Of a stretch of 64,000 nt of DNA, positions 10,801 through 61,497 are shown piece by piece. Source of the DNA: Ignavibacteria bacterium (GTDB lineage Bacteria > Bacteroidota > Ignavibacteria > Kapaibacteriales > UBA2268); contig JAERMQ010000013.1 in the NCBI GenBank assembly GCA_016844745.1, positions 72,530-136,529 on the forward strand. The letters run 5' to 3'. The number at the start of each line of letters is the position of its first letter. The stretch's first letter is position 1. Both the position numbers and the translations under genes were made by a program. The notes beneath the pieces were generated by a model. It searched no databases, was not told the DNA's origin, and worked only from the letters and a program-made list of their open reading frames with translations.

Positions 10801-12413
10801 TTGAGGATACCGGCTCCGGCTTCAATATTCCAGCCTCCATCACCGAAACCGGTTGCGCTTGCTTCCAGTATCCCTTTTATGTCCTCAGGAGAAGCTAATG
10901 GATTAAGCTGACGTATCATTGCTGAAACTGCAGAAATATGTGGAGCAGCTAATGAAGTGCCTGCCGTTTCTTTGTATGCTCCTCCCATAGCGGTTGTTTT
11001 GATTTCTGAACCGGGAGCAAGTAATGCAAGCCGTGAATTGAAATTGCTGAATGATGCACGTTGATTTTTAATCGTTGAAGCGCCAACTCCAATAACTTCA
11101 TCATAATCGGATGGATAATGCGGTTTGCTTGCGCCGTCGTTGCCGGAAGAACCAATAATTACGCAACCGGATGCATAAGCAAATTTAACTGCTTCATGCA
11201 AAATCGGGGAATCCGAATATTCACCAAAACTACAGTTCAATATTTTAATTCCGTTTAATGCAGCATAAATTATTGCCGATGCTATATCACTCGACTGTCC
11301 GCCGCCAACTGCATCGAGGGCACGAAGTGTGACTATCTTAGCATCGAAAGCTATACCCGTTATTCCAATACCATTATTATTTTGGGCTGCAATAACTCCC
11401 GAAACAATAGTTCCGTGTCCATGATTATCAGTTGGAACAGCATCCCTCTGCCTGTCATCACCAACATTTGCAATCGACTCATCGACGAAATCATAACCAA
11501 TAACATCGTCAGAATATCCATTTCCGTCATCATCTTTTCCGTTGAGGTCGCCGGTTATCCCTTTCAATGTATCAGTAGATGTCCAAGGTTCGAATGTACC
11601 GTTTTGATTCAAATCTTCTTTAGGATTAATCCATAGGCTTTTTTTCAAATCGGGATGGTCGTATTCTATACCCGTATCTATTACTCCAACTAAAACATCT
11701 TTACCGGTGGAAAGTAGCCAGGCTTTATCTGCACCTATGGCTTTGATAGCCCATTGGTCTTTGTAATAAGTGTCATTGGGAGTTACTGATGTAGTATCAA
11801 TATGATAAATTACATTCTTATCAATTCGAATAATATCAGGATTGCTTCTCAATTTTTCCCATGCAGCAGGTATGGAAGCCTCATCGGTGAAATTCAAAAC
11901 AAAATACTTTCTTAATTCATTATAATCTTTGTTTTGTTCACTGGATAGTAGGGAATTACCGTTTTTGTCAGAATTAATCTTGGGAAAAATTTGCTTAAAC
12001 TTTGAATTTTTTAATCCAAGATGAATGAGAACATTGCCGATACTCGATGCTGAACGTAATTTTATAATAATAGAATTATTTCCGCTTTTACAGAATAGGT
12101 TATTTGATGAAAATAAAATTACAATTGATGAAAATAAAACTATAAATAACAGAATAGATGTCCTACATCTGCCAGATGTAGGACATCTTCGTTCCTTCAA
12201 TTGATAGATGTCATTAACAGCAATACGAAGTATTGTATAGAATCTATACAACGCATGAATACTGGATTCTTCACTTCGTTCAGAATGACAATCCTGTAAA
12301 TTTGAAAAATTTCCATGTGTATTTATACAAATTGGAAAGTGGATGGAACGGACATTTTTCATGGATATGCTTACAAACTTTCTACATAATTCAAATATAT
12401 AAAAAGCAATCAA
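7815..12413 (-). CDS. Very large secreted subtilisin-like (S8) serine peptidase with FG-GAP/VCBS-type repeats and a C-terminal T9SS/FlgD-Ig-like sorting domain. The 5' end is uncertain.
   Basis: S8 catalytic triad blocks: VIDTGIEYDHPDL (Asp), HGHGTIVSGVIAA (His), GTSLAAPHISAVSAMI (Ser). Multiple DxDGDG repeat motifs (GDFDGDGNIE, DIDGNGIPE). The C-terminal LTFAQIP...IQGELI...IYLFYV segment resembles a T9SS CTD. The listed N-terminus translates through two REP-like palindromes (12157-12187, 12265-12293) before the hydrophobic signal-like segment (ILLFIVLFSSIVILF). No in-frame ATG lies near that segment, so the true start may be a non-ATG codon around 12170 or the long leader may be real. Confidence 0.75.
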   Translation of the reverse strand: MIAFYIFELCRKFVSISMKNVRSIHFPICINTHGNFSNLQDCHSERSEESSIHALYRFYTILRIAVNDIYQLKERRCPTSGRCRTSILLFIVLFSSIVILFSSNNLFCKSGNNSIIIKLRSASSIGNVLIHLGLKNSKFKQIFPKINSDKNGNSLLSSEQNKDYNELRKYFVLNFTDEASIPAAWEKLRSNPDIIRIDKNVIYHIDTTSVTPNDTYYKDQWAIKAIGADKAWLLSTGKDVLVGVIDTGIEYDHPDLKKSLWINPKEDLNQNGTFEPWTSTDTLKGITGDLNGKDDDGNGYSDDVIGYDFVDESIANVGDDRQRDAVPTDNHGHGTIVSGVIAAQNNNGIGITGIAFDAKIVTLRALDAVGGGQSSDIASAIIYAALNGIKILNCSFGEYSDSPILHEAVKFAYASGCVIIGSSGNDGASKPHYPSDYDEVIGVGASTIKNQRASFSNFNSRLALLAPGSEIKTTAMGGAYKETAGTSLAAPHISAVSAMIRQLNPLASPEDIKGILEASATGFGDGGWNIEAGAGILNAEAALNIIGGTHLYISTPKNNQVFNRKNQTTIPVTGSIATPLFNNYLVLIGKGIDPVYVPKRDLPDTIKQYFNLKPWDTLNIKTNSQIIDGKLAEIPVDNYSDSVYTIRVIVNLKNFHTIEFRKYIEIASEKTRIKIDSLIILYPIFNGKRILLAAAQTSSQCLFSVRFRPLNSNSEFKEISEYETSGRFHSITAYDLQPGIVYEAEAVAVRTGCDSVINKFNFTLPQEGMPSDKFIQQGYSLPPENLLNKVSDFYHDGYPCIAVNEMASALWGPTKIYQFKDNKFIQRDSTPNLWIPVGMGDSNGDGIMEVFAKSSGKSVLFQASIQSGNPFSNKIFSDTVYHNFWAAGMYDFDRNGNPELIASSDTSYLIYTFMNNRYELMTMALDSNRERKHIGTLPGLAIGDFDGDGNIELCFGNRSGDIMFYEFSKGALNLEFIDSSGNSDENFYISTVDIDGNGIPEILIGSIDSSLLPNENDNGVIIWKYRIFQKIGTNSYKSIWTDYVYGVRSGIDYRNGVSAGNLDKEPGDEIVLMPFPNLYILKWDKKNQNMKPLYWNNNAFSNSAVIYDFNNNGVNEIGFNTGNETVFYEFNAQFQGPSAPTSFDGWATSDSTAFFQWYPSPDAEGYEIDSLRFEGKSVFADPVGQTTSNTINIENLGKNKFYSFVIRSYNSNMTDFYSQFSLLDTNIVKIYTHNPLFAQSAEFQNGNRLLVKYTGKLGNKTLEPALFELLDVKKEFLTIAKSVVFGNDSSLIVTLPDFITEGQYILRCKSFRDMWRMPTKENYLPLELSKQQKEIFLYLKSLEVISRTQLLVEFSEPTEQQTAEQISNYMISPYGKIIKVNQKQSNPAQVSIELEPSELIAALGKTYTLTVKNVKSNSEHLMTTGAGNSLSFLFTSPNGDDAFAYPNPIKLGDANHLTFAQIPSKCEVVVITIQGELIARLKEIDGNGGVDWDLHNRNGNLIDPGIYLFYVRETKADGSTVEYERRKFAVVR

Positions 12414-16268: not shown

Positions 16269-16321
16269 CAAGACTTCGGATTGATAATTTTGTTTAGGTG
16301 GGTTCTAAAAATTCAATTTAG

Positions 16322-16402
16322 ACTGTCATTCTGAGCGAAGCGAAGAATCTATCTTGTTGATTTTAAAGAAGACTGGATTCTTCGCTTCGCTTCAGAATGA
16401 CA
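16322..16402. repeat. Hairpin element, family A (arms tgtcattctgagcgaagcgaagaatc / gattcttcgcttcgcttcagaatgaca)
   Basis: ~26-bp inverted arms separated by ~24 bp. Related copies at 39299-39372 and 42442-42521; half-copies at 12265-12293 and ~46447-46466. Confidence 0.8.
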
Positions 16403-16953
16403 ATTTTTAGAAGCCCCCTTTATTCAATTCAACCTATTTTGTTATTTGGTAATAATTTAAAAGATTGATTATAATATTAAAATAAATATACTTTTACATT
16501 CTCTTTATTCGAATAGAATTTAGAGTAACGTATCTTTAAAATTAGTATTTCTTACCTTAATTAGTGATACTAATTAATTTATTATTTCTAAAATATTATA
16601 TTAAATTTAAATTGTTTTGAGGAAATATTGGCTAAATATTAATATAAACATTTAATTACATTATAATAATAATAAAATACTACAAATAATATCATTAATT
16701 TATTGATAATTATATATATTGAAAAAAAAAATTCCATTATAACATATCCCGGAAGAAATAATTGAAAATCAAATAAGTAAAATTTCTTTGAAAAGAACAT
16801 CCTACTTAATTTTTAGGCAGGATGTTCTTTTTTGTAACATTTACGATATAAAAAAATAAATTTCTTTGTTAGAGGTCTGAACTATAAATAAATTTGCTTA
16901 TTAGTAATATTATAAAAATTTGTTTATTATTTGATAACATAAAGGTAGTATTT

Positions 16954-20890: not shown

Positions 20891-21763
20891 ATGACCGGAA
20901 AAGTAGCAATGACACTTCAGCTTAATCAAGAAAAGGTAGCACAGACGCCCCCGTCTGTGCATAAACCAATTAAAGAAGAGGTATCACAAGTACCTCCGTC
21001 AGTGGATAATCTCATCCAAGAAAAGGTAGCACAGACGCCCCCGACTGTACATAATCCGATTAAAGAAGAGGTATCACAAGTACCTCCGTCAGTGGATAAT
21101 CTCATGCAAGAAAAAGTAGCACAGACGCCCCCGTCTGTACAGCATGAAAATGAACCAAAAAACTCAATGTCTTTAAATAATCTAATTCAAAACAAAGAGG
21201 CACAGACGGGGGCGTCTGTGCTACCAAGTGCAGATAATACTTCATCATTTCAACCAATAATAGATTTTACTTTTCATCAAAGAAACCTCCCACACTGGCA
21301 AAATCCAGGAAGTATATATTTTATTACATTTAGAACCTATAAAAATTTAATTCTTGATGATATTTCAAAACAAATAATTTATGAAAATATCATTTATTAT
21401 GGTAAACTTTTTTATAAGTTATTGTCATTTGTAATAATGCCGGACCATATTCATATTATTCTTCAACCCAATGAAATAGAAAAAAATATTTACGTAAACC
21501 TTTCCAAAATTATGCAAGCGATTAAAGGATATGCAGCCAAACAAATAATTAAGCATCTATCTCAACAGACAGAACAGACCTCACAAATTCAAGAGATTGC
21601 ACAGACGGGGGCGTCTGTGCTACTAAATTCCAATTTTCAAATAAAGAATGAGAATACATCGCAGAAAATTGCTTTCTTATTTTATCCATTTTCATATCTT
21701 TTTAAAATCGTTTTAATACTGTTCCTTTTGCGCATATTATATTTGCAAAGCTGTGTTCTTTGA
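20891..21763 (+). CDS. REP-associated tyrosine transposase (RAYT / IS200-like Y1 HuH transposase). The N-terminal ~90 aa as listed are translated from a REP tandem array and may not all be coding.
   Basis: Core FHQRNLPHW...IYFITFRT...MPDHIHIIL (HuH) ...KGYAAKQI (catalytic Tyr helix) matches the Y1_Tnp/RAYT family. The first clear in-frame Met before the core is MSLNNL (~21163). A 91-bp unit is repeated 3x in 20915-21150. Confidence 0.8.
   Translation: MTGKVAMTLQLNQEKVAQTPPSVHKPIKEEVSQVPPSVDNLIQEKVAQTPPTVHNPIKEEVSQVPPSVDNLMQEKVAQTPPSVQHENEPKNSMSLNNLIQNKEAQTGASVLPSADNTSSFQPIIDFTFHQRNLPHWQNPGSIYFITFRTYKNLILDDISKQIIYENIIYYGKLFYKLLSFVIMPDHIHIILQPNEIEKNIYVNLSKIMQAIKGYAAKQIIKHLSQQTEQTSQIQEIAQTGASVLLNSNFQIKNENTSQKIAFLFYPFSYLFKIVLILFLLRILYLQSCVL
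20939..21140. repeat. Array of three 22-bp palindromic REP copies (gcacagacgcccccgtctgtgc, 'CCCCC' orientation) embedded in ~91-bp tandem repeat units
   Basis: Copies at 20939-20960, 21029-21050 and 21119-21140, each within a repeated QEKVAQTPPSV...IKEEVSQVPPSVDNL unit. Confidence 0.85.
21200..21221. repeat. REP copy in inverted orientation (gcacagacgggggcgtctgtgc)
   Basis: Same palindrome with the central GGGGG instead of CCCCC. Lies just upstream of the RAYT catalytic core. Confidence 0.85.
21599..21620. repeat. REP copy (GGGGG orientation) within the 3' end of the RAYT ORF
   Basis: Exact 22-bp match to the copy at 21200. Confidence 0.85.
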
Positions 21764-21867
21764 AAAAGCCGGGATGAAATCCTTCGTGTCCATTGAGAGT
21801 GCCTTTGCGCCCTTTGTGTTAAAATCAGTTCATAAAGTTGAAAGTGAAGGGCGAACTGATAAACACT

Positions 21868-21990
21868 TTCAGAAAGTTTCCCTACTTTCGGAAAGTTGAA
21901 CAAAAAAAATGCAATAAATCCTATTCAATAGTATTCATTCGTACCTTATGAAAAAAACTTTCTGAAAGTAGGGAAACTTTCCGAAAGTAA
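21868..21990. repeat. 33-bp inverted repeat pair (ctttcagaaagtttccctactttcggaaagtt / aactttctgaaagtagggaaactttccgaaagt) separated by ~55 bp
   Basis: Near-perfect reverse-complementary arms between the RAYT gene and the 3' end of the convergent activase gene. Probably a large hairpin element or bidirectional terminator. Confidence 0.6.
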
Positions 21991-29649: not shown

Positions 29650-29775
29650 TTTCTTTTACTTTGTGCCCTTTGTGCTAACCCTTTGAGTCCTTTGTGGTAA
29701 AAATAACATCAAAATAAAGGATGAAAATTTTAACACAAAGAACACTAAGGAAATGCACAAAGGGCACAAAGTATG
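29650..29775. repeat. ~125-bp inverted-repeat element (arms actttgtgccctttgtgc...aaaaat / attttaacacaaag...gcacaaagggcacaaagt)
   Basis: Terminal inverted repeats of ~17 bp plus internal complementary segments. A related fragment (cctttgcgccctttgtgttaaaat) lies at 21795-21830. MITE-like. Confidence 0.6.
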
Positions 29776-32520: not shown

Positions 32521-32549
32521 GATTGGATTTGTTTACATTTTTAAATATA

Positions 32550-32580
32550 GATGTCCTACATCTGCCAGATTTAGGACATC
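32550..32580. repeat. REP-like palindrome, family B (gatgtcctacatctgccagatttaggacatc)
   Basis: 31-bp near-perfect palindrome. Copies at 12157-12187 (perfect) and 22070-22100 (variant gatgtccaacatcttccagatgttggacatc). Confidence 0.8.
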
Positions 32581-32589
32581 TCCAGTCAA

Positions 32590-39298: not shown

Positions 39299-39372
39299 AA
39301 TGTCATTCTGAACAAAGTGAAGAATCCAGAAGCAGTATTGGGACTGGATTCTTCACTTCGTTACCAATGACA
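39299..39372. repeat. Hairpin element, family A (aatgtcattctgaacaaagtgaagaatcc / ggattcttcacttcgttaccaatgacag)
   Basis: Inverted arms around a 17-bp spacer, between dsbD and hprK. Both are minus-strand genes, so a terminator role is possible. Confidence 0.75.
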
Positions 39373-39472
39373 GATTTTTCTTATGATTCACACAGCCTCA
39401 TTCGCAGAAATGACATCTTTAATTTTTAAACCTCATGCAAAATTATTAATTAGTAATTATTAATTAGTAATG

Positions 39473-42346: not shown

Positions 42347-42441
42347 TCATTTCCTTTATATATGGTTAGAAATTCAATATTAATAATATTTCAACTTTGA
42401 GATTCTAAATTAAAAATTGAAATTGTCTCAATAGTCAAGAA

Positions 42442-42521
42442 GAATGTCATTCGTAAGCGAAGTGAAGAATCCAGAAATAGCATTGGGAATGGATTCTTCA
42501 CTTCGCTTACGAATGACATTC
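42442..42521. repeat. Hairpin element, family A (gaatgtcattcgtaagcgaagtgaagaatcc / ggattcttcacttcgcttacgaatgacattc)
   Basis: 31-bp perfect inverted arms separated by an 18-bp loop. Lies 3' of the membrane-protein gene / 5' region of metH. Confidence 0.85.
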
Positions 42522-42596
42522 TTCCATTTTTTAGATTAATAAAACAAAATAATTTTTTTTTATAATAATTCATAACTTATAATTCATAACTCATAA

Positions 42597-45500
42597 TTAC
42601 TTATAACTAATAAGGTGATTTAAAAACTTTTCAGCCACTTCCAAACTAATCCCTTTACGCCTGCGGTAATCGTTGGTTTGTGCAAAATCAATTTTGCCGA
42701 CAGGAAAATACTTCGATTCCGGATTAGCGAAATAAAATCCGCTGACTGATGCAGCAGGTTGCATCATAAAGTTTTCTGTCAATTCTATTCCAACATTCTT
42801 CCGGATATTAAGCAAATCAAATATAACAGCATTTACAGATTGGTCGGGAAGTGATGGATAACCCGCTGCCGGTCTTATACCGGAATATTTCCCTGACAGT
42901 AAATCATCTATAGATTGCTCTTTTTCAATGGAATATCCCCAGATTTCATTCCGAACTTTTTTATGCAGTAATTCGGCAAAAGCTTCAGCCAGGCGGTCAG
43001 CTAATGCTTGTGATATTATACTTCTATAATCGTCGCCTTCAGCTCTATATTTTTCGGATAGAGCAGCAGAGCCAATTCCTGCTGTCAATGCAAATGCACC
43101 GATATAGTCATCTATTTCAATTCCGGCAGTAGCTATGAAATCCGCTAAAGAAAGATACGGACTATTTTCCGATGTTTTTAATTCTTGTTGTCGGAGTGTA
43201 TGCAGAACTTTCGAAATTCCATGTCGAGTATCATCTGAATATATTTCAATATCATCGTCGGATACAGTATTTGCTGGGAATATACCAACTGCTGCATTGG
43301 CTTTCAGAAGCTTTCCGGAGATAATTTCATCCAGAAGCAAGTTAGCTTCAAAGAATAATTTCCTTGCTTCTTCTCCTTTTTCAGGATGTTCGAATACAGC
43401 CGGATACCGGCCTTTAATATCCCAAAGAAGAAAAAATTGAGTCCAGTTGATATATTTCCTGATTTCCTCTAACGGATAATCATGAAAAAGGGTAATTCCT
43501 GTTTTTATTGGTTTTTTTATATCTGAGTTTGACCAATCAATTCTCTTTTTCTTTTTCCTGGCATCCAGTAGGCTTACCAGCTTTTTCTTTGCCGTATTGT
43601 TCAGGTAATTTTCCCTCAACTCGGTGTATTCTTTACGTTTTGAATCAACGAATGTCTGCTTGCCTGTTTCTGATAATAAACTACTGACGACAGGTACACT
43701 CTTTCCTGCATCAGTTACATGTACAACAGGCTGTGAATATGCCGGAGCTATTTTAACCGCCGTATGCATTCTCGATGTAGTTGCTCCGCCAATTAAAAGT
43801 GGTAGTTTGACGTTGTTTTTCTCAAGCATTGCTGCTACATTAATCATCTCTTCGAGCGATGGAGTAATAAGCCCTGATAAACCAATAACATCAACCTGGT
43901 TTGCCTGTGCTTGCTGAATGATTTTTTCGGCAGGAACCATTACGCCGAGGTCAATTACTTCATAATTATTGCATGCAAGCACAACTCCAACAATATTTTT
44001 ACCAATATCATGTACGTCGCCTTTGACGGTTGCTAACAGCACTTTGCCTGCTTTTTGTTTTCCGGATACAGTAAGTTCCTCTGTTAAGAATGGAGTTAAA
44101 TAAGCAACCGATTTCTTCATTACACGAGCACTTTTGACAACCTGTGGCAAAAACATCTTTCCTGAACCGAATAATTCGCCAACCTGCTCCATTCCTTTCA
44201 TCAAGGTACCTTCAATAACGGCTAATGAGTTGCTCGATTCTTTGCGGAGTTCTTCGGTATCAGCTTCAATATAAGTATCATTACCTTTAATCATGGAATA
44301 AATCAACCGTTCGGTAGGGGGGAGGCTTCGCCATTCTTCCTGTTTTACCGCATCCTGAACCGTAGCAGTAAGTCCGGTCGAATATTCTGTTAATCGCTCT
44401 GTTGCATCATTCCGACGATTGAAAATTACATCTTCGATTAAATCGCGTAACTCTTTAGGAACTGCTTCATAAACATCCAATTGAGCAGGATTAACTATTC
44501 CCATATCCAAACCGGCTTGTACGGCATGATATAGAAATACAGAATGAAATGCTTCACGAACGGGATTATTGCCTCTGAATGAAAATGAAATATTGCTTAT
44601 GCCGCCGCTGGTCGATACTCCCGGCAAATTTGTTTTGACCCACCTGACTGCTTCCAAATAATTTACAGCATATTCTGAGTGTTCTTCTATACCTGTAGCT
44701 ACGGTTAAAATATTGGGGTCGAAAATTATGTCCTGTGGCGGAAATCCGATTTCATCGACTAAAATATTATATGAACGTTGAATTATATCAATTTTATTCT
44801 TAGTAGTTACTGCCTGACCTGTTTCATCGAATGCCATAACGACAACGGCAGCGCCTAATTTGCGAATGATTTTCGCTTTTTCTTTGAATTTCTCTTCGCC
44901 TTCTTTCAGGGAAATTGAGTTAACGATACCCTTTCCTTGAATACACTTTAAGCCTGCTTCCAGAATATCCCAATTGGAGGAATCAATCATAACGGGCACG
45001 CGGCTTATATCGGGTTCGGCAGCAATTAAATTGAGGAATTTCTTCATAGATTCGATGCCGTCTAACATAGCTTCGTCCATACTTACATCTATTATCTGAG
45101 CGCCGCCTTCTACCTGCTGACGAGCAACACTTAAGGCTTCATCGAATTTTCCGTCAATAATTAATTTTTTGAATTTGATGGAACCCGCTACATTTGTACG
45201 TTCACCGATATTTACAAAATTAATTTCCTGACGGAAGACAAGGGGCTCCAATCCGCTTAATCTCAAATATTTCGGAACATCGGGAATAATGCGAGGTTTG
45301 TATCGTGCCGCTGTTTCGCTGATGAGTTGAATATGTTCGGGAGTTGTGCCACAGCAGCCGCCTAAAATATTTACTAATCCATCGCCGGCATATTCTTCGA
45401 TGATTTTTGCCATTATGTCGGGTGTTTCGTCGTATCCACCAAAGGAATTAGGCAATCCGGCATTGGGATAGAGACTTGTAAAGTGAGGTGTAATTTTTGA

Positions 45501-46277
45501 TAACTCCTCGATATATGGTTTCATTTGTTCGGTGCCAAGCGCACAATTCAATCCGACGCTTAATAAATACGGTGTATGGGCAATAGAAATAAGGAATGCT
45601 TCCAAAGTCTGACCTGATAATGTCCTGCCACTCTGGTCGGTTATAGTACCGGAAATCATTATCGGCAATGAATTTCCGCTTTGCTCAAAGTATTGGGAAG
45701 CAGCGTTAATAGCAGCTTTGCAATTAAGTGTATCGAAGATAGTTTCTATAAGTAGAATATCAGCACCGCCTTCAGCCAAACCTCGGATTTGTTCATAATA
45801 TGCAGTCACGAAATCATCAAAATAAAAGCGTCGAAAGCCCGGACGCTCTACATCGGGCGACATCGAAGCAGATTGATTTGTCGGACCGATAGCGCCGGCT
45901 ACGAATCTGGGTTTGTCGTTAAATTCATTTGCAACCTGCCGGGCTATTTTAGCAGATTCGTAGTTAATTTGAAAAACTAAGCTTTCAAACTTATAATCCA
46001 ACTGTGAGAGTCCATTGGCATTGAATGTATTTGTTTCGATAATATCAGCGCCGGCTTGCAGGTATTTGCGATGAATTTCCTTTATAGCTTCGGGTTGTGT
46101 CAGTGATAAAATATCGTTATTGCCTTTGATGTCGTAATCGAGATTACGGAATTGTTCACCGCGGAAGTCCTGTTCTGTCAAGCCGAGCCTTTGAATCATC
46201 GTGCCCATAGCGCCGTCGAGGACTAATATTCTTTCTTGAAGTATTTTATATAAAGTGTTGAATTTATTATTAAGCAT
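42597..46277 (-). CDS. metH: Cobalamin-dependent methionine synthase
   Basis: 1226 aa with the Hcy-binding (S-methyltransferase) domain, pterin-binding domain, B12-binding [10 protein letters not shown] motif, and C-terminal AdoMet-activation domain. Confidence 0.9.
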
Positions 46278-46467
46278 TTATTTCAAAATCAATCTTTATT
46301 TTTTTAAGTTCACAAAATCCGAACCACTCACGGTTTCAATAACGAAATAATTGTCAAAGAATTTTATTCAAATATGTTTTGAGAAAATATCTGATATAAA
46401 GGTTAAGAAGTAATTTATAAAAAGACATATATTTGGTATTTGTAAATTGAAGTGAAGAATCAGGTTA

Positions 46468-46776
46468 TCATGCGATTATCATGGATAAATCAACGTTATC
46501 AAAGAGCCTTGCAGAATGAAATACTGTCAGGATTCTAACATTATCGTCAATTAAATGATAGATAATTCTGTAATTACCATATATTAATTCCCTGATATCT
46601 TCCTTCTTAAGTTCAGGGATAATTCTTCCCGAAAAAGGAAAAATTTCTAACTTTTCGGTTACTTCAATAATGTTATCTATGGTAATATCAGCATATTTGG
46701 GAGAGTCTCTAAAAATGTATTCATATATTAATTTTAAGTCATCTCTTGCCTGCTCAGACCAGATTATCTTTTCCAT
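46468..46776 (-). CDS. RelE/ParE-family type II toxin
   Basis: 102 aa. IIWSEQARDDLKLIYEYI ... RILTVFHSAR pattern of ParE/RelE toxins. Overlaps the upstream small antitoxin gene by 13 bp. Confidence 0.65.
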   Translation of the reverse strand: MEKIIWSEQARDDLKLIYEYIFRDSPKYADITIDNIIEVTEKLEIFPFSGRIIPELKKEDIRELIYGNYRIIYHLIDDNVRILTVFHSARLFDNVDLSMIIA

Positions 46777-46955
46777 TCCAAAACCTGATTTTTTAATTCT
46801 GAATGCGAAATTGATTGACCAGCATTGACTTGTTGCAATCCTTTTTCAATTTTATAAATTAAAAACATTCTTTCCATAATATCATCAAATGTCGTTTCAG
46901 AATTGATATTTTCAGTTACTTCGATGAGTTTATCTTTTATTGATAATAATTCCAT
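46764..46955 (-). CDS. Putative antitoxin partner of the ParE/RelE-like toxin (small addiction-module component)
   Basis: ~63-aa acidic helical protein immediately upstream of and overlapping the toxin gene. Start taken at MELLSIKDK. Confidence 0.45.
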   Translation of the reverse strand: MELLSIKDKLIEVTENINSETTFDDIMERMFLIYKIEKGLQQVNAGQSISHSELKNQVLEWKR

Positions 46956-47048
46956 TTTAAAAAGCCTCCAAAAGTTAATAGAACTCAAATAACAGGTTTA
47001 ATATTATTTTTTACATAAAGATTCGATAAAGAATTTTATTAGACCTCT

Positions 47049-47489
47049 TTAATACATATCTACAACCCATTTACCATCATTGATTGGATTACCGATAATT
47101 CCCTGACTTTTAGGGTCAACCACCCAGTCCATTGTTTTGAGTACCAAATATCCGATTAAAGCCGGAACATTGTCATCTTTATTTTCCATTACTTGCATTT
47201 GAATAGTCCGCTCTTTTATTGTTATTTTTGCACCATCGAATATCCTAAGTTCAAGGCTGCCATTCCCAGTCTTTACAGGTGTTGATTTCGCAAAACGAAG
47301 ACCAAGTTCCTTAATAACTTTCGGAGGCAGGCAAAGATAGGCAGCACCGGTATCAACCAAAGCATCAATTTCTAAGCTCCGGATTTGATTAGGTTTGATG
47401 TAACCTTTATCAGATAACACAATATCATCATAGTTAGTTATCACTACTTTTTCTGACGTTCTACCCCTTTTATTTTCCCTTAGTTTCAT
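47049..47489 (-). CDS. Stand-alone retropepsin-like (clan AA) aspartic protease
   Basis: DTGAAY active-site motif (ALVDTGAAYLCLP) and C-terminal LIGYLVLKTMDWVVD flap/dimer region. 146 aa. Compare the AF_0612 / Asp_protease_2 families. Confidence 0.6.
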   Translation of the reverse strand: MKLRENKRGRTSEKVVITNYDDIVLSDKGYIKPNQIRSLEIDALVDTGAAYLCLPPKVIKELGLRFAKSTPVKTGNGSLELRIFDGAKITIKERTIQMQVMENKDDNVPALIGYLVLKTMDWVVDPKSQGIIGNPINDGKWVVDMY

Positions 47490-47538
47490 TTATTAGAACT
47501 ATTTAATTATAAAAATTCTATACGATGAAAATTATTAA

Positions 47539-48129
47539 TTATTGCATATTGTCCCTTTTTTTAAATATTATTTCTTCGTCTGCTTGTTTGAATTCGATAT
47601 CGAATAGGTCGAATACTGTTTCGCGTCCAATAATCAAATCGTTAATATCTTCATCCTGAAGCCATGCTACACGAATTTTAAAACGGTAGCTGTCAATTTC
47701 AATTTCCGTCTCTCTAATTAGGTATTCGACTGAACCGCCAATCCCTATAACGATAGAAACTGATTCATGTTTGCCTTTAGTAAATCCAAGTTTTTCACCA
47801 AATTTTTTGCCGACTGCTGTAATATCGGCTCCACTATCAATCAATACATTTTCAGAAATATTACTGCCATCGTCAAGAAAAAACATTATCGGATATTCAG
47901 GATACCACTCATGCAATTTCATACTTTTAAGTCTCAAAGGTAAAATTCGGTACAAATCAGGTCTTTTAGGAACAGCAAAACATGAAAATTTTTGAGTGAT
48001 TATTTTTGCCTTTTTTTCTATTTCATCATAATCATCAGCGACTGCAATTATTTTATCATCTGCAATAGCTATGATCCTTCCCCAATATTCCCGGTTGTTG
48101 AACATTTCCTTTTGCCATTCGTTTTTCAT
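47539..48129 (-). CDS. Fusion protein: N-terminal small domain (resembles DUF5678 by eye, unverified) + retropepsin-like aspartic protease. Paralogue of 6544..7122.
   Basis: LIDSGADITAVG active site. ~50% identity to 6544..7122 including the N-terminal EYWGRIIAIADDKIIAVADDYDEI segment and the C-terminal IIGRETVFDLFDIEFKQ. Confidence 0.55.
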   Translation of the reverse strand: MKNEWQKEMFNNREYWGRIIAIADDKIIAVADDYDEIEKKAKIITQKFSCFAVPKRPDLYRILPLRLKSMKLHEWYPEYPIMFFLDDGSNISENVLIDSGADITAVGKKFGEKLGFTKGKHESVSIVIGIGGSVEYLIRETEIEIDSYRFKIRVAWLQDEDINDLIIGRETVFDLFDIEFKQADEEIIFKKRDNMQ

Positions 48130-48243
48130 AAAATACTCCTTGATAAATTTTTTGCAAATATACTAAAAACCGTTATTAAAAAATTCCTGAGAAATATTCT
48201 TATTTTATCAAAAAGAACAACGTATTGAGAGTAATTATATTTA

Positions 48244-49284
48244 CTATTCCTGCTTCATCAATTCGGATAATTTTTCAATTTGCTCCGCAGTACCAACTGT
48301 TATCAACTGGTCTGCTCTCTTCAACTTGAAATCCGAAGGAGGATTCAAATGCGGTATTCCATGACGGTAAACACCTAAAACAGTAGCCCCGGTATGCTTT
48401 CTTATATTAATTTCCTTCATTGTCTTATCAATCCATACCGAACCATCGGGAAGTATAATATTTTTAAAATTCAAATTATTTTCGCCGGGGGAAAAGCTCT
48501 GGTCGAAAAAATCATACATGTTAGGATTCATTGCTTCTCCAGCTAAACGCTGCCCACCAATGGAATATGGATTTACAATCCTGTCTGCTCCGGCACGCTT
48601 CAACTTTTCGACGGAAGTATCGTCATCGCAGCGGGCAATAATAAATATTTTTGGATTCAACACACGGGCAGAAAGAACAACGTAAAGCGTAATTGCATGG
48701 TCCCCGGTAGCTACTATTACTGCTTTGGCTCTGTCGATACCGGCTTTAAGTAGTACTTTATCTTCGGTAGCATCACCTTCGATGGCTATATAATCACATT
48801 CGTCAATAATTGAAGTTCTATCTTCTAATGATGTTTCAATAATAACAAAGGGAACATTTGCATCTGATAGTTCCGAAGCGGCTAAGCTGCCAACGCGACC
48901 GAAGCCGACTAAAATAATATGGTTCGTTAATTCCGAGATTTTTTTCATTGCTTTTTTTTCCGATTTTACGTTTGATAATTGAATAATCACTAAGTTTTCC
49001 ATAATAATACTAAGCAGGTAGAATAGGCTGCCAATGCCCGAAACGGCTATTATTATAGTAAAAATCCTGCCCGTAGTATCTAATGGATGAATTTCCTGAA
49101 AACCAATAGTTGTAATCGTTATAAATGTCATATACAATTGGTCAATGAAAGTAGGATTTGAGGAATGCCAGATAATACCATAGCCAACGGTACCGACAAT
49201 TAATACCACAAGCAAAATAATTGCAGGAAGAACCGGTTTTCTGGTATCCGGTTTAGCTCTGTGTTGTCTTAATTTAACAATCAT
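48244..49284 (-). CDS. Potassium channel protein with RCK (TrkA-N/TrkA-C) domains
   Basis: 2-TM pore module with a selectivity-filter-like TTIGFQE segment, then a Rossmann GxGxxG (ILVGFGRVG) TrkA-N domain and a TrkA-C domain. Confidence 0.65.
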   Translation of the reverse strand: MIVKLRQHRAKPDTRKPVLPAIILLVVLIVGTVGYGIIWHSSNPTFIDQLYMTFITITTIGFQEIHPLDTTGRIFTIIIAVSGIGSLFYLLSIIMENLVIIQLSNVKSEKKAMKKISELTNHIILVGFGRVGSLAASELSDANVPFVIIETSLEDRTSIIDECDYIAIEGDATEDKVLLKAGIDRAKAVIVATGDHAITLYVVLSARVLNPKIFIIARCDDDTSVEKLKRAGADRIVNPYSIGGQRLAGEAMNPNMYDFFDQSFSPGENNLNFKNIILPDGSVWIDKTMKEINIRKHTGATVLGVYRHGIPHLNPPSDFKLKRADQLITVGTAEQIEKLSELMKQE

Positions 49285-49408
49285 TAATTTCTACTGATAA
49301 ATCAACAATTCTACAAAAATAAATTAAATAATTCATTCAAAATATGATTTAATGCAAAGTAGTCGTATTTTTGTGTTTTTGTTTTTTGCATAAATAATAG
49401 TTGGTTGA

Positions 49409-61367: not shown

Positions 61368-61442
61368 TTAAGAGAAACCCCCTAACCCCCTTTGAAAAAG
61401 GGGGAATTTATTATTCCACCTTTTTCAAAGGGGGTTAGGGGG
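61368..61442 (+). terminator. Strong rho-independent terminator / long palindrome after accA
   Basis: aaaccccctaaccccctttgaaaaaggggg ... cctttttcaaagggggttagggggttt forms a ~28-bp stem followed by ttttcttt. Confidence 0.7.
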
Positions 61443-61497
61443 TTTTTCTTTGTATATTGAATTAAATTGACAATTTTATTAACTAAACAAGAAAAAT

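Follow-up and report, generated by a model that had tools for sequence, protein, structure and literature searches.

The window analysed here, 64 kb of DNA from a metagenome-assembled genome (MAG) of Ignavibacteria, carries a dispersed family of hairpin repeats, composed of three strong hairpins with two inverted arms each, a solo arm and a relic; the family is real and well beyond chance. Each arm is very probably an Ssn-related motif (SRM), the kind of repeat that flanks genes of the small GIY-YIG nucleases named Ssn, and the pairs in the window are, with the same high probability, gene-less inverted SRM pairs, the counterpart of the SRM–ssn–SRM cassette, much like NIMEs or REPINs. They are regarded as a gene-less counterpart because they reproduce the SRM–ssn–SRM arrangement of other genomes, minus the gene.

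In Neisseria meningitidis the nuclease of this system, SsnA, has a single GIY-YIG domain (cd10448) and a length of 94 aa, and its target, the repeat NTS (CGTCATTCCCGCGMAVGCGGGAATCYRG, in short form CGTCATTCCCGCG…GCGGGAATCYRG), is bound as single-stranded DNA only and cut a few bases upstream, the duplex being left uncut (Chenal et al., Nat Commun 2025, PMC11893778). Binding and cutting restricted to single-stranded DNA, and to one strand only, were shown for four Neisseria/Wolbachia enzymes; in the NTS of N. meningitidis, the three bases before the palindrome weigh most for cutting and the C after it most for binding (PMC11893778). Ssn homologues are known from many phyla, 71% of them with at least one flanking SRM and 42% with SRMs on both sides, and an Ssn homologue is encoded in 81% of the genomes with more than 200 SRMs (PMC11893778). 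In Neisseria, the Ssn system lowers the integration of NTS-bearing transforming DNA, and the NTS–ssnA–NTS layout has been likened to an insertion sequence (PMC11893778).

Window-type arms and ssn genes in other genomes

The first-pass annotation of this DNA had described a proliferating element whose arm sequence, and not its structure alone, is conserved, and had named a sequence absent elsewhere as the refuting outcome; that outcome is decisively contradicted, for the arm recurs widely. The pattern TGTCATTC-N5-8-AAGYGAAGAATC was found in at least 118 stretches, spread over many phyla, of a one-genome-per-species collection, and viral contigs have it in 56 stretches, mainly as solo arms (L001-L056). 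The hosts include Bacteroidota, Ignavibacteria/Kapaibacteria, Chlorobiales, Saccharibacteria, Gracilibacteria, Nitrospirota, Nitrospinota, Acidobacteriota, Chloroflexota, Armatimonadota, Planctomycetota, Verrucomicrobiota, Cyanobacteria, Melainabacteria, Firmicutes, Spirochaetes, several proteobacterial classes and Aquificota. Since the list extends to isolates (Lacinutrix, Bizionia, Mucilaginibacter, Pedobacter, Calothrix PCC 7716 and Sulfurihydrogenibium), this breadth is more than a binning artefact. The 26-nt arm is nearly constant in flanks that range from A+T-rich to G+C-rich, and its sequence is close to unchanged in roughly 18 or more phyla, so that sequence is conserved along with structure. 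Rfam holds no family for it at gathering thresholds, the sub-threshold matches being generic hairpins only (miRNA-like), and a literature search by sequence returned no relevant paper.

Inverted pairs at these other loci mostly have loops of 1-63 nt. A case in point for a longer loop is the gracilibacterial locus L065, where 406 nt encode a protein of ~100 aa with the GIY-YIG signature, the open reading frame (ORF) stopping inside the right arm (…RDSSLRSE*). Five GIY-YIG genes were present in 1.3 Mb of motif-selected DNA, and all five adjoin arms. At L070 the ORF lies inside near-perfect inverted arms, the right one with a one-base deletion; at L058, as at L065, a left and a right arm surround the GIY-YIG ORF, and at L050 and L174 arms are adjacent to it. 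The arm-flanked proteins are single-domain PF01541 proteins of 93-109 aa, two of the four having also a weaker, overlapping match to the GIY-YIG-related T5orf172.

The association holds when approached from the protein side, using 80 metagenome loci selected by protein alone. A strict motif (GTC, an exact 5-bp stem, then C), with a background of 0.26 per kb, lies within 200 nt upstream, oriented like the gene, at 42 of 79 loci, within 200 nt downstream, oriented against it, at 46 of 75, and on both sides at 29 of 74; 39 of the 80 loci have an arm of the window type (profile E ≤ 0.01) no farther than 300 nt away. A database search returned 1,896 homologues of the arm-flanked protein, ~70% identical across Deltaproteobacteria, Chloroflexota, Nitrospirae and others. 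Many of the 104-aa homologues end in …DSSLRSE, …DPSLRSG or the like, which is the right arm translated, and some begin with …CHSERSEES, the left arm translated.

As for the identity of the nuclease, the consensus protein matches the SsnA gene of the gonococcal chromosome (tblastn, 44.7% identity, E = 6e-17), and the alignment to gonococcal SsnA runs end to end over 87 columns (hhalign, 99.8%, E = 2e-27); the gonococcal ssnA gene is itself encircled by canonical NTS repeats. These sequence comparisons indicate that the arm-flanked proteins are homologous to Neisseria SsnA. The first-pass annotation had advised a search for a cognate transposase with matching ends: a cognate protein is indeed encoded between the arms elsewhere, but it belongs to the Ssn family of GIY-YIG nucleases, with a length of ~95 aa, and is no known transposase. 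Plasmid p1 of Planktothrix agardhii encodes a 79%-identical 'GIY-YIG nuclease family protein' amid arrays of window-type pairs. This locus (L256, NZ_LR882964.1 17347-20616; homologue WP_083616022.1) is situated between an MmeI-type restriction-modification gene and DISARM drmA, hence inside a defence island, and the nuclease matches no PADLOC model; more generally, neither PADLOC nor PHROGs has a family for the arm-associated nuclease. The whole viral collection yielded one complete ssn gene and two fragments only; in phages, then, the gene is far rarer than the motif.

Aligned position by position, NTS reads CGTC, ATTCCCGC-GMAV-GCGGGAAT, C, YRG and the window arm TGTC, ATTCTGAGC-GAA-GCGAAGAAT, C, CAG; NTS may alternatively be split as CGTC-ATTCCCGCG-MAV-GCGGGAAT-C-YRG. 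Both palindromes, of 20 nt in NTS and of 21 nt in the arm, are preceded by GTC and followed by C, the positions on which cleavage and binding of the NTS depend most (PMC11893778). Both are short, oriented, intergenic and multicopy hairpin motifs that start with GTCATTC and end with GAATC(YRG), and window-type arms elsewhere enclose, as an inverted pair, a gene for a single-domain GIY-YIG protein of ~94 aa. The two differ in the stem, continuous, 8 bp long and G+C-rich in NTS, whereas here a tandem G·A mismatch and a GC-GAA-GC cap interrupt it. They differ also in the enzyme, the Ssn clade associated with the window-type arm being ~45% identical to that of Neisseria, and in the host, an Ignavibacteria MAG with no ssn gene in the window (see below). 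The window motif, a variant known here from sequence alone, is moreover present in viral contigs, an occurrence on which the main text of PMC11893778 is silent. That text makes no mention of Bacteroidota, Ignavibacteria or MITEs, and of phage only in the context of dRS3; a literature search found no follow-up papers.

Along the same line, the window pairs resemble the dRS3 repeats and intergenic mosaic elements (NIMEs) of Neisseria in being inverted repeat pairs around a short spacer, scattered between genes. The neighbourhood of gonococcal ssnA has inverted NTS pairs with spacers of 52-53 nt, longer than the 14-26 nt of the window. In contrast to NIMEs, the arms of one window element (copy 3) are exact complements, which makes a long perfect palindrome of the whole unit. 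A Neisseria phage recombinase, furthermore, uses dRS3 as an integration target (PMC11893778); nothing comparable was seen here.

Anatomy of the arm and its copies in the window

The arm unit is TGTC + ATTCT-GA-GC-GAA-GC-GA-AGAAT + C, and consists of an oriented 5' flank (TGTC), a basal stem (ATTCT/AGAAT), a tandem G·A/A·G mismatch, an apical mini-hairpin (GC-GAA-GC) and a 3' C, often followed by AG (CAG). The 75-85-bp 'hairpins' of the window are thus two such motifs, inverted and separated by a spacer of 14-26 nt. While the first-pass annotation was right about the repeat, the basic unit is not the 75-80-bp hairpin but the single arm of ~26 nt with a small hairpin of its own. All seven window arms start with TGTC. 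In the arm alignment (A2), T5 and C6 are invariant and G4 is conserved in at least 90% of the arms, as is the C of column 28, the base after the palindrome. What follows GAATC in the window is CAG in five of the seven arms (right arm of copy 1, both arms of copy 2, left arm of copy 3 and the solo arm), CAT in the right arm of copy 3 and TAT in the left arm of copy 1.

The intra-arm hairpin is supported by covariation. In 206 arms found with a pattern that leaves the inner-pair positions free, the inner pair is G..C in 134, A..T in 37, G..T in 5 and A..C in 3; the swap from G-C to A-T is visible within the window itself, between copy 1 on one side and copy 2 and the solo arm on the other. A further set was made of 47 distinct arms from ssn loci, collected by sequence profile only, and four window arms. 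Here the helix ATTCT/AGAAT plus GC/GC, seven pairs in all, has 96% of its cells paired, and double changes occupy 35 cells against 7.9±2.2 in shuffles, a value reached in none of 500, though these counts come from arm copies that are mutually related. Compensatory changes affect four of the seven pairs (T-A to C-G, G-C or A-T in the basal stem, G-C to A-T in the apex), and slid-helix controls collapse. The apex varies in length and sequence with its self-complementarity retained.

In DNA, GCGAAGC forms an unusually stable hairpin with a GAA loop, and the tandem 5'-GA/3'-AG mismatch is likewise stable. The d(GCGAAGC) mini-hairpin was reportedly characterised by Hirao and co-workers in the 1990s on isolated oligonucleotides. 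The consensus arm has precisely this heptamer, GCGAAGC, at its apex, bordered by the 5'-GA/3'-AG tandem mismatch, with the difference that a genomic repeat, rather than an oligonucleotide, is concerned here.

In the window (Table 1), all five sites reported by the first-pass annotation are real, their coordinates having been off by only a few bases, and the GAATGACA/TGTCATTC termini given there are correct; what had been taken for a half-copy is instead one full single arm, that is, one entire motif. A pattern search (27 nt, up to 3 mismatches) gave four matches in the window against 0.00 expected from 100 shuffles. A profile built from the arms of other genomes recovered exactly seven window arms, with E between 3.8e-12 and 4.6e-3 and, beyond the relic, nothing else of note. 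The exact 12-mer AAGTGAAGAATC is common to the relic and five of the seven arms, and by my estimate from base composition it would occur by chance at most ~0.01 times per window. Both arms of copy 3 share a private variant, CGTAAGCG.

Table 1. Arms, pairs and relic of the repeat family in the 64-kb window
Feature	Position	Strand	Description	Profile E
Copy 1, pair	16324..16402		strong hairpin; arms ~27 nt, exact 16-nt core 16334-16349 / 16376-16391 (inverted-repeat scan)	
Copy 1, left arm	16324..16350	+	one SRM-type motif TGTCATTCTGAGCGAAGCGAAGAATCT; identical to the cross-phylum consensus	3.8e-12
Copy 1, right arm	16375..16402	-	SRM-type motif TGTCATTCTGAAGCGAAGCGAAGAATCC with one extra A; then AG, giving an NTS-like CAG tail	6.6e-8
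Copy 1, whole palindrome	16296..16419	.	outer inverted repeat AGGTGGGTTCTAAAAATT / AATTTTTAGAAGCCCCCT (16296-16313 / 16402-16419, 18-nt arms, 89% complementary, inverted-repeat scan) encloses the motif pair; RNA fold of 16290-16425, -65.8 kcal/mol, z = -10.2	
Copy 2, pair	39301..39372		strong hairpin; arms 29 nt, 86% complementary, 14-nt loop (inverted-repeat scan)	
Copy 2, left arm	39301..39329	+	TGTCATTCTGAACAAAGTGAAGAATCCAG; inner pair is the A..T version	6.9e-9
Copy 2, right arm	39344..39372	-	TGTCATTGGTAACGAAGTGAAGAATCCAG; 5' half degenerate, the profile aligning to the 3' half only	4.6e-3
Copy 3, pair	42439..42524		strong hairpin; arms 35 nt, 100% complementary, 16-nt loop (inverted-repeat scan)	
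Copy 3, left arm	42439..42473	+	GAAGAA + TGTCATTCGTAAGCGAAGTGAAGAATCCA	7e-5
Copy 3, right arm	42490..42524	-	exact reverse complement of the left arm	5.9e-5
Solo arm	12264..12290	-	complete single motif TGTCATTCTGAACGAAGTGAAGAATCC, then AG	3.1e-10
Relic	46449..46461	+	3' half of the motif only (GAAGTGAAGAATC)	0.27

Every site is intergenic, between two genes of the same strand: a CBS-domain gene and a chemoreceptor gene for copy 1, HPr kinase and DsbD for copy 2, methionine synthase and a hypothetical gene for copy 3, a family-2 glycosyltransferase and an S8 subtilase for the solo arm. The relic lies 7 nt off the stop codon of a ParE toxin gene (46468-46776, minus strand); the region 46468-46988 of that strand comprises this ParE-family gene (Pfam PF05016) and a small upstream ORF, presumably its antitoxin. 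A+T-rich, heptamer-like tandem repeats adjoin copies 2 and 3 (39441-39470, taattagtaattattaattagtaat; 42560-42610, cataacttataattcataactcataatt), and comparable heptamer runs follow solo arms in several viral contigs (L010, L033, L039). The methionine synthase (MetH) of the window is 100% identical to P0121, its homologues point to an Ignavibacteria MAG as the source, and the next relative is only 64% identical; two homologues from Melioribacteraceae (P0215, P0218) are ~150 aa longer than the others and have extra PF04480 and PF18741 domains, which suggests a nuclease-like insertion.

The window has other features outside the family. A 33-nt palindrome (AGATGTCCTACATCTG / CAGATGTAGGACATCT) is present both at 12156-12188, ~75 nt from the solo arm, and at 32549-32581, and further long palindromes of unrelated sequence are located at 29657-29773 (54-nt arms, 80%), 61370-61450 (38-nt arms, 95%, AAACCCCCTAACCCCC…GGGGG) and 21865-21988 (33-nt arms, 94%). 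A full-length tmRNA gene occupies 415-778 on the minus strand (Rfam RF00023, 172.6 bits). The cumulative GC skew has its minimum at ~46000-49400 and gene orientation switches from minus to plus at ~49.3 kb, a possible sign of a replication origin or of a rearrangement.

Competing explanations, copying and mobility

Several observations weigh against the identification of the window arms with SRMs. The published SRM search string, HGTCWYN(0-2)YYVSBRHN(0-5)WNVSBRGN(0-2)RNCYNB, matches nothing in the window, none of 201 window-type arms and one of the 80 ssn loci of the clade. My implementation of it recovers the NTS consensus and six gonococcal NTS copies; the string misses the window arms because these have the tandem G·A and the GCGAAGC apex in place of the continuous G+C stem. 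It is, however, a search heuristic derived from 29 genomes and not a family definition and, judged by its sequence, the window arm type is a subclass outside the published search motif, though with the features that give NTS its function. Furthermore, tblastn found no ssn gene in the 64-kb window, so that a cognate enzyme in the source Ignavibacteria is putative, the binding and cleavage of the window arms are predictions, and their mobility is a possibility.

Energetics also speak against it. Nearest-neighbour DNA energies of single arms are only -1 to -3 kcal/mol and mostly no better than those of shuffles, under a standard energy model that ignores the extra stability of GCGAAGC and of the tandem G·A; with such weak folds, the case for the arm hairpin is made by covariation and not by energy. 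The whole pair, as DNA, is a long hairpin of -20 to -41 kcal/mol and, having both arms on one strand, it would hide the motif in a duplex of the sort that Neisseria SsnA leaves uncut; perfect pairs might in this way mask themselves from Ssn by folding into a long uncuttable duplex. Finally, the arms of copy 3 lack a regular basal stem and nevertheless form a perfect 35-nt palindrome, which points to some constraint on the long palindrome itself.

Transcription termination is the role that the first-pass annotation had thought possible. That the hairpins are mainly intrinsic terminators or 3'-end stabilisers, their sequence likeness reflecting recent duplication only, is improbable, even though all copies lie 50-120 nt past a stop codon and their RNA folds are highly stable (-35 to -66 kcal/mol, z = -4.9 to -14). 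On the plus strand a T-run follows the right arm in all three pairs, and for copy 1, whose right stem is followed by ATTTTT, this is also the strand of the upstream gene. The genes upstream of copies 2 and 3 are instead on the minus strand, where no T-run adjoins the stem. A consensus terminator scan flagged none of the elements, which is weak evidence, since its criterion of a 3-8-nt loop excludes their loops of 14-26 nt. A terminator requires structure only, and the near-invariance of the 26-nt arm, which extends from Bacteroidota to Chloroflexota, Cyanobacteria and Firmicutes, goes beyond any structural need; covariation backs a small hairpin within each arm in addition to the long one; solo arms are frequent; and the arms elsewhere flank one specific gene family. 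Termination is not supported as the main role, and is plausible for copy 1 only, as a side effect at most.

Mobile elements with a known transposase are the other class to be considered. The elements do have the look of repetitive extragenic palindromes (REPs), as first proposed, and of REPINs, being dispersed inverted pairs of a short motif, and the window encodes an IS200-like Y1_Tnp ORF at 20891-21763. That this RAYT-type transposase mobilises them is nonetheless very improbable. The RAYT-like ORF goes with another palindrome family, GTAGCACAGACGCCCCCGTCTGT (20941-21224), the GTAG head of which is absent from the arms, and it has no homologue in ~260 arm-bearing loci, where GIY-YIG genes are present; the separation of the two repeat families made by the first-pass annotation is thus sound. 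The RAYT-like ORF (plus strand), as called, crosses in its 5' part the GTAG-type REP palindromes, so that its true start is probably later; it represents a second, independent repeat/nuclease system. The analogy with REP/BIME/REPIN and RAYT, drawn also for Ssn in PMC11893778, is one of design: there, too, short extragenic palindromes, single or as inverted doublets, are recognised as single-stranded hairpins and flank the gene of a cognate nuclease, and the system may be a domesticated mobile element, the cognate being a HUH/Y1 transposase there and a GIY-YIG nuclease here.

Just as remote is an origin as classical miniature inverted-repeat transposable elements (MITEs), that is, deletion derivatives of DDE-type insertion sequences with terminal inverted repeats TGTCATTC… and target-site duplications. 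Terminal inverted repeats, small size, dispersed intergenic copies and the loop sequence common to copies 2 and 3 would all fit; the ends of the three copies, however, show no direct duplication, each arm has a conserved internal hairpin, and the sole gene found between such arms is that of the ~95-aa GIY-YIG nuclease, with no DDE transposase there. No full-length element with these termini and a DDE or other known transposase was seen. Searches for empty sites and for cassette termini likewise gave tandem arrays, one non-diagnostic 89-nt indel and no clean termini. In the former, the joined flanks of 215 pairs were compared with all collected DNA: tandem arrays dominate, and in the single clean case (L006) the 89-nt indel lies between direct repeats, hence is not diagnostic of transposition. 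In the latter, similar ssn cassettes of differing context were compared, and similarity ends within neighbouring arms or loops.

That pairs are copied as units is clear in the window. Copies 2 and 3 are identical at 64 of 74 positions, loop included; whole pairs were therefore copied, and the two are shown to descend from one whole element, arms plus loop. Elsewhere, in a composite of ~149 bp (L128 3121-3269; L089 715-862; L099 5046-5193), an outer inverted repeat (ACAGGCTGCGGAAAAA / TTTTTCCGCAGCCTGT) encloses a window-type pair. Contigs of two MAGs, one of Acidobacteriota and one of Saccharimonadales, share this composite at 95% identity within unrelated flanks, which reflects either a recent cross-phylum transfer or mis-binning; it is 89-91% identical to a second copy in the Saccharimonadales MAG.

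A bolder extension of the SRM interpretation takes the SRM–ssn–SRM cassette for an autonomous mobile element that is mobilised by its ~95-aa GIY-YIG nuclease, belongs to a new mechanistic class and has an exceptionally broad host range, with the gene-less pairs of the window as non-autonomous derivatives. The near-identical arms in ~18 or more phyla and in viral contigs, the ~70% identity of Ssn across phyla and the 95%-identical composite are consistent with it; I consider it conceivable but rather doubtful.

Proposed role and significance

Under the SRM interpretation, each arm would be a short oriented hairpin, the single-stranded form of which is recognised by a small single-domain GIY-YIG Ssn nuclease that cuts a few bases 5' of it. 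An Ssn of the source Ignavibacteria genome, or an incoming one, would bind and cut the arms whenever the DNA is single-stranded, as may occur in incoming transforming or conjugating DNA, in replication and in repair. The repeat family would have spread through the copying of whole pairs, and any terminator effect would be secondary. Seven arms per 64 kb would extrapolate to several hundred per genome.

To sum up, the Ssn–repeat system has been known since 2025, and the window extends it to a new host lineage with a gene-less member of a subclass that is widespread and missed by the published motif. For annotation, this means that hairpins of this type are to be read as marks of a present or past Ssn-type system cutting single-stranded DNA, and not as anonymous REPs, MITEs or terminators. 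The arm type represents a large, many-phylum subclass that is invisible to the published search string; Ssn homologues scored as 'without SRM' may consequently have one. The subclass further provides a new enzyme/site pair on which single-stranded DNA tools could be built. As to whether Ssn cassettes are mobile, the conservation of site and enzyme across phyla, the motifs on viral contigs and the copying of whole pairs all bear on the question.

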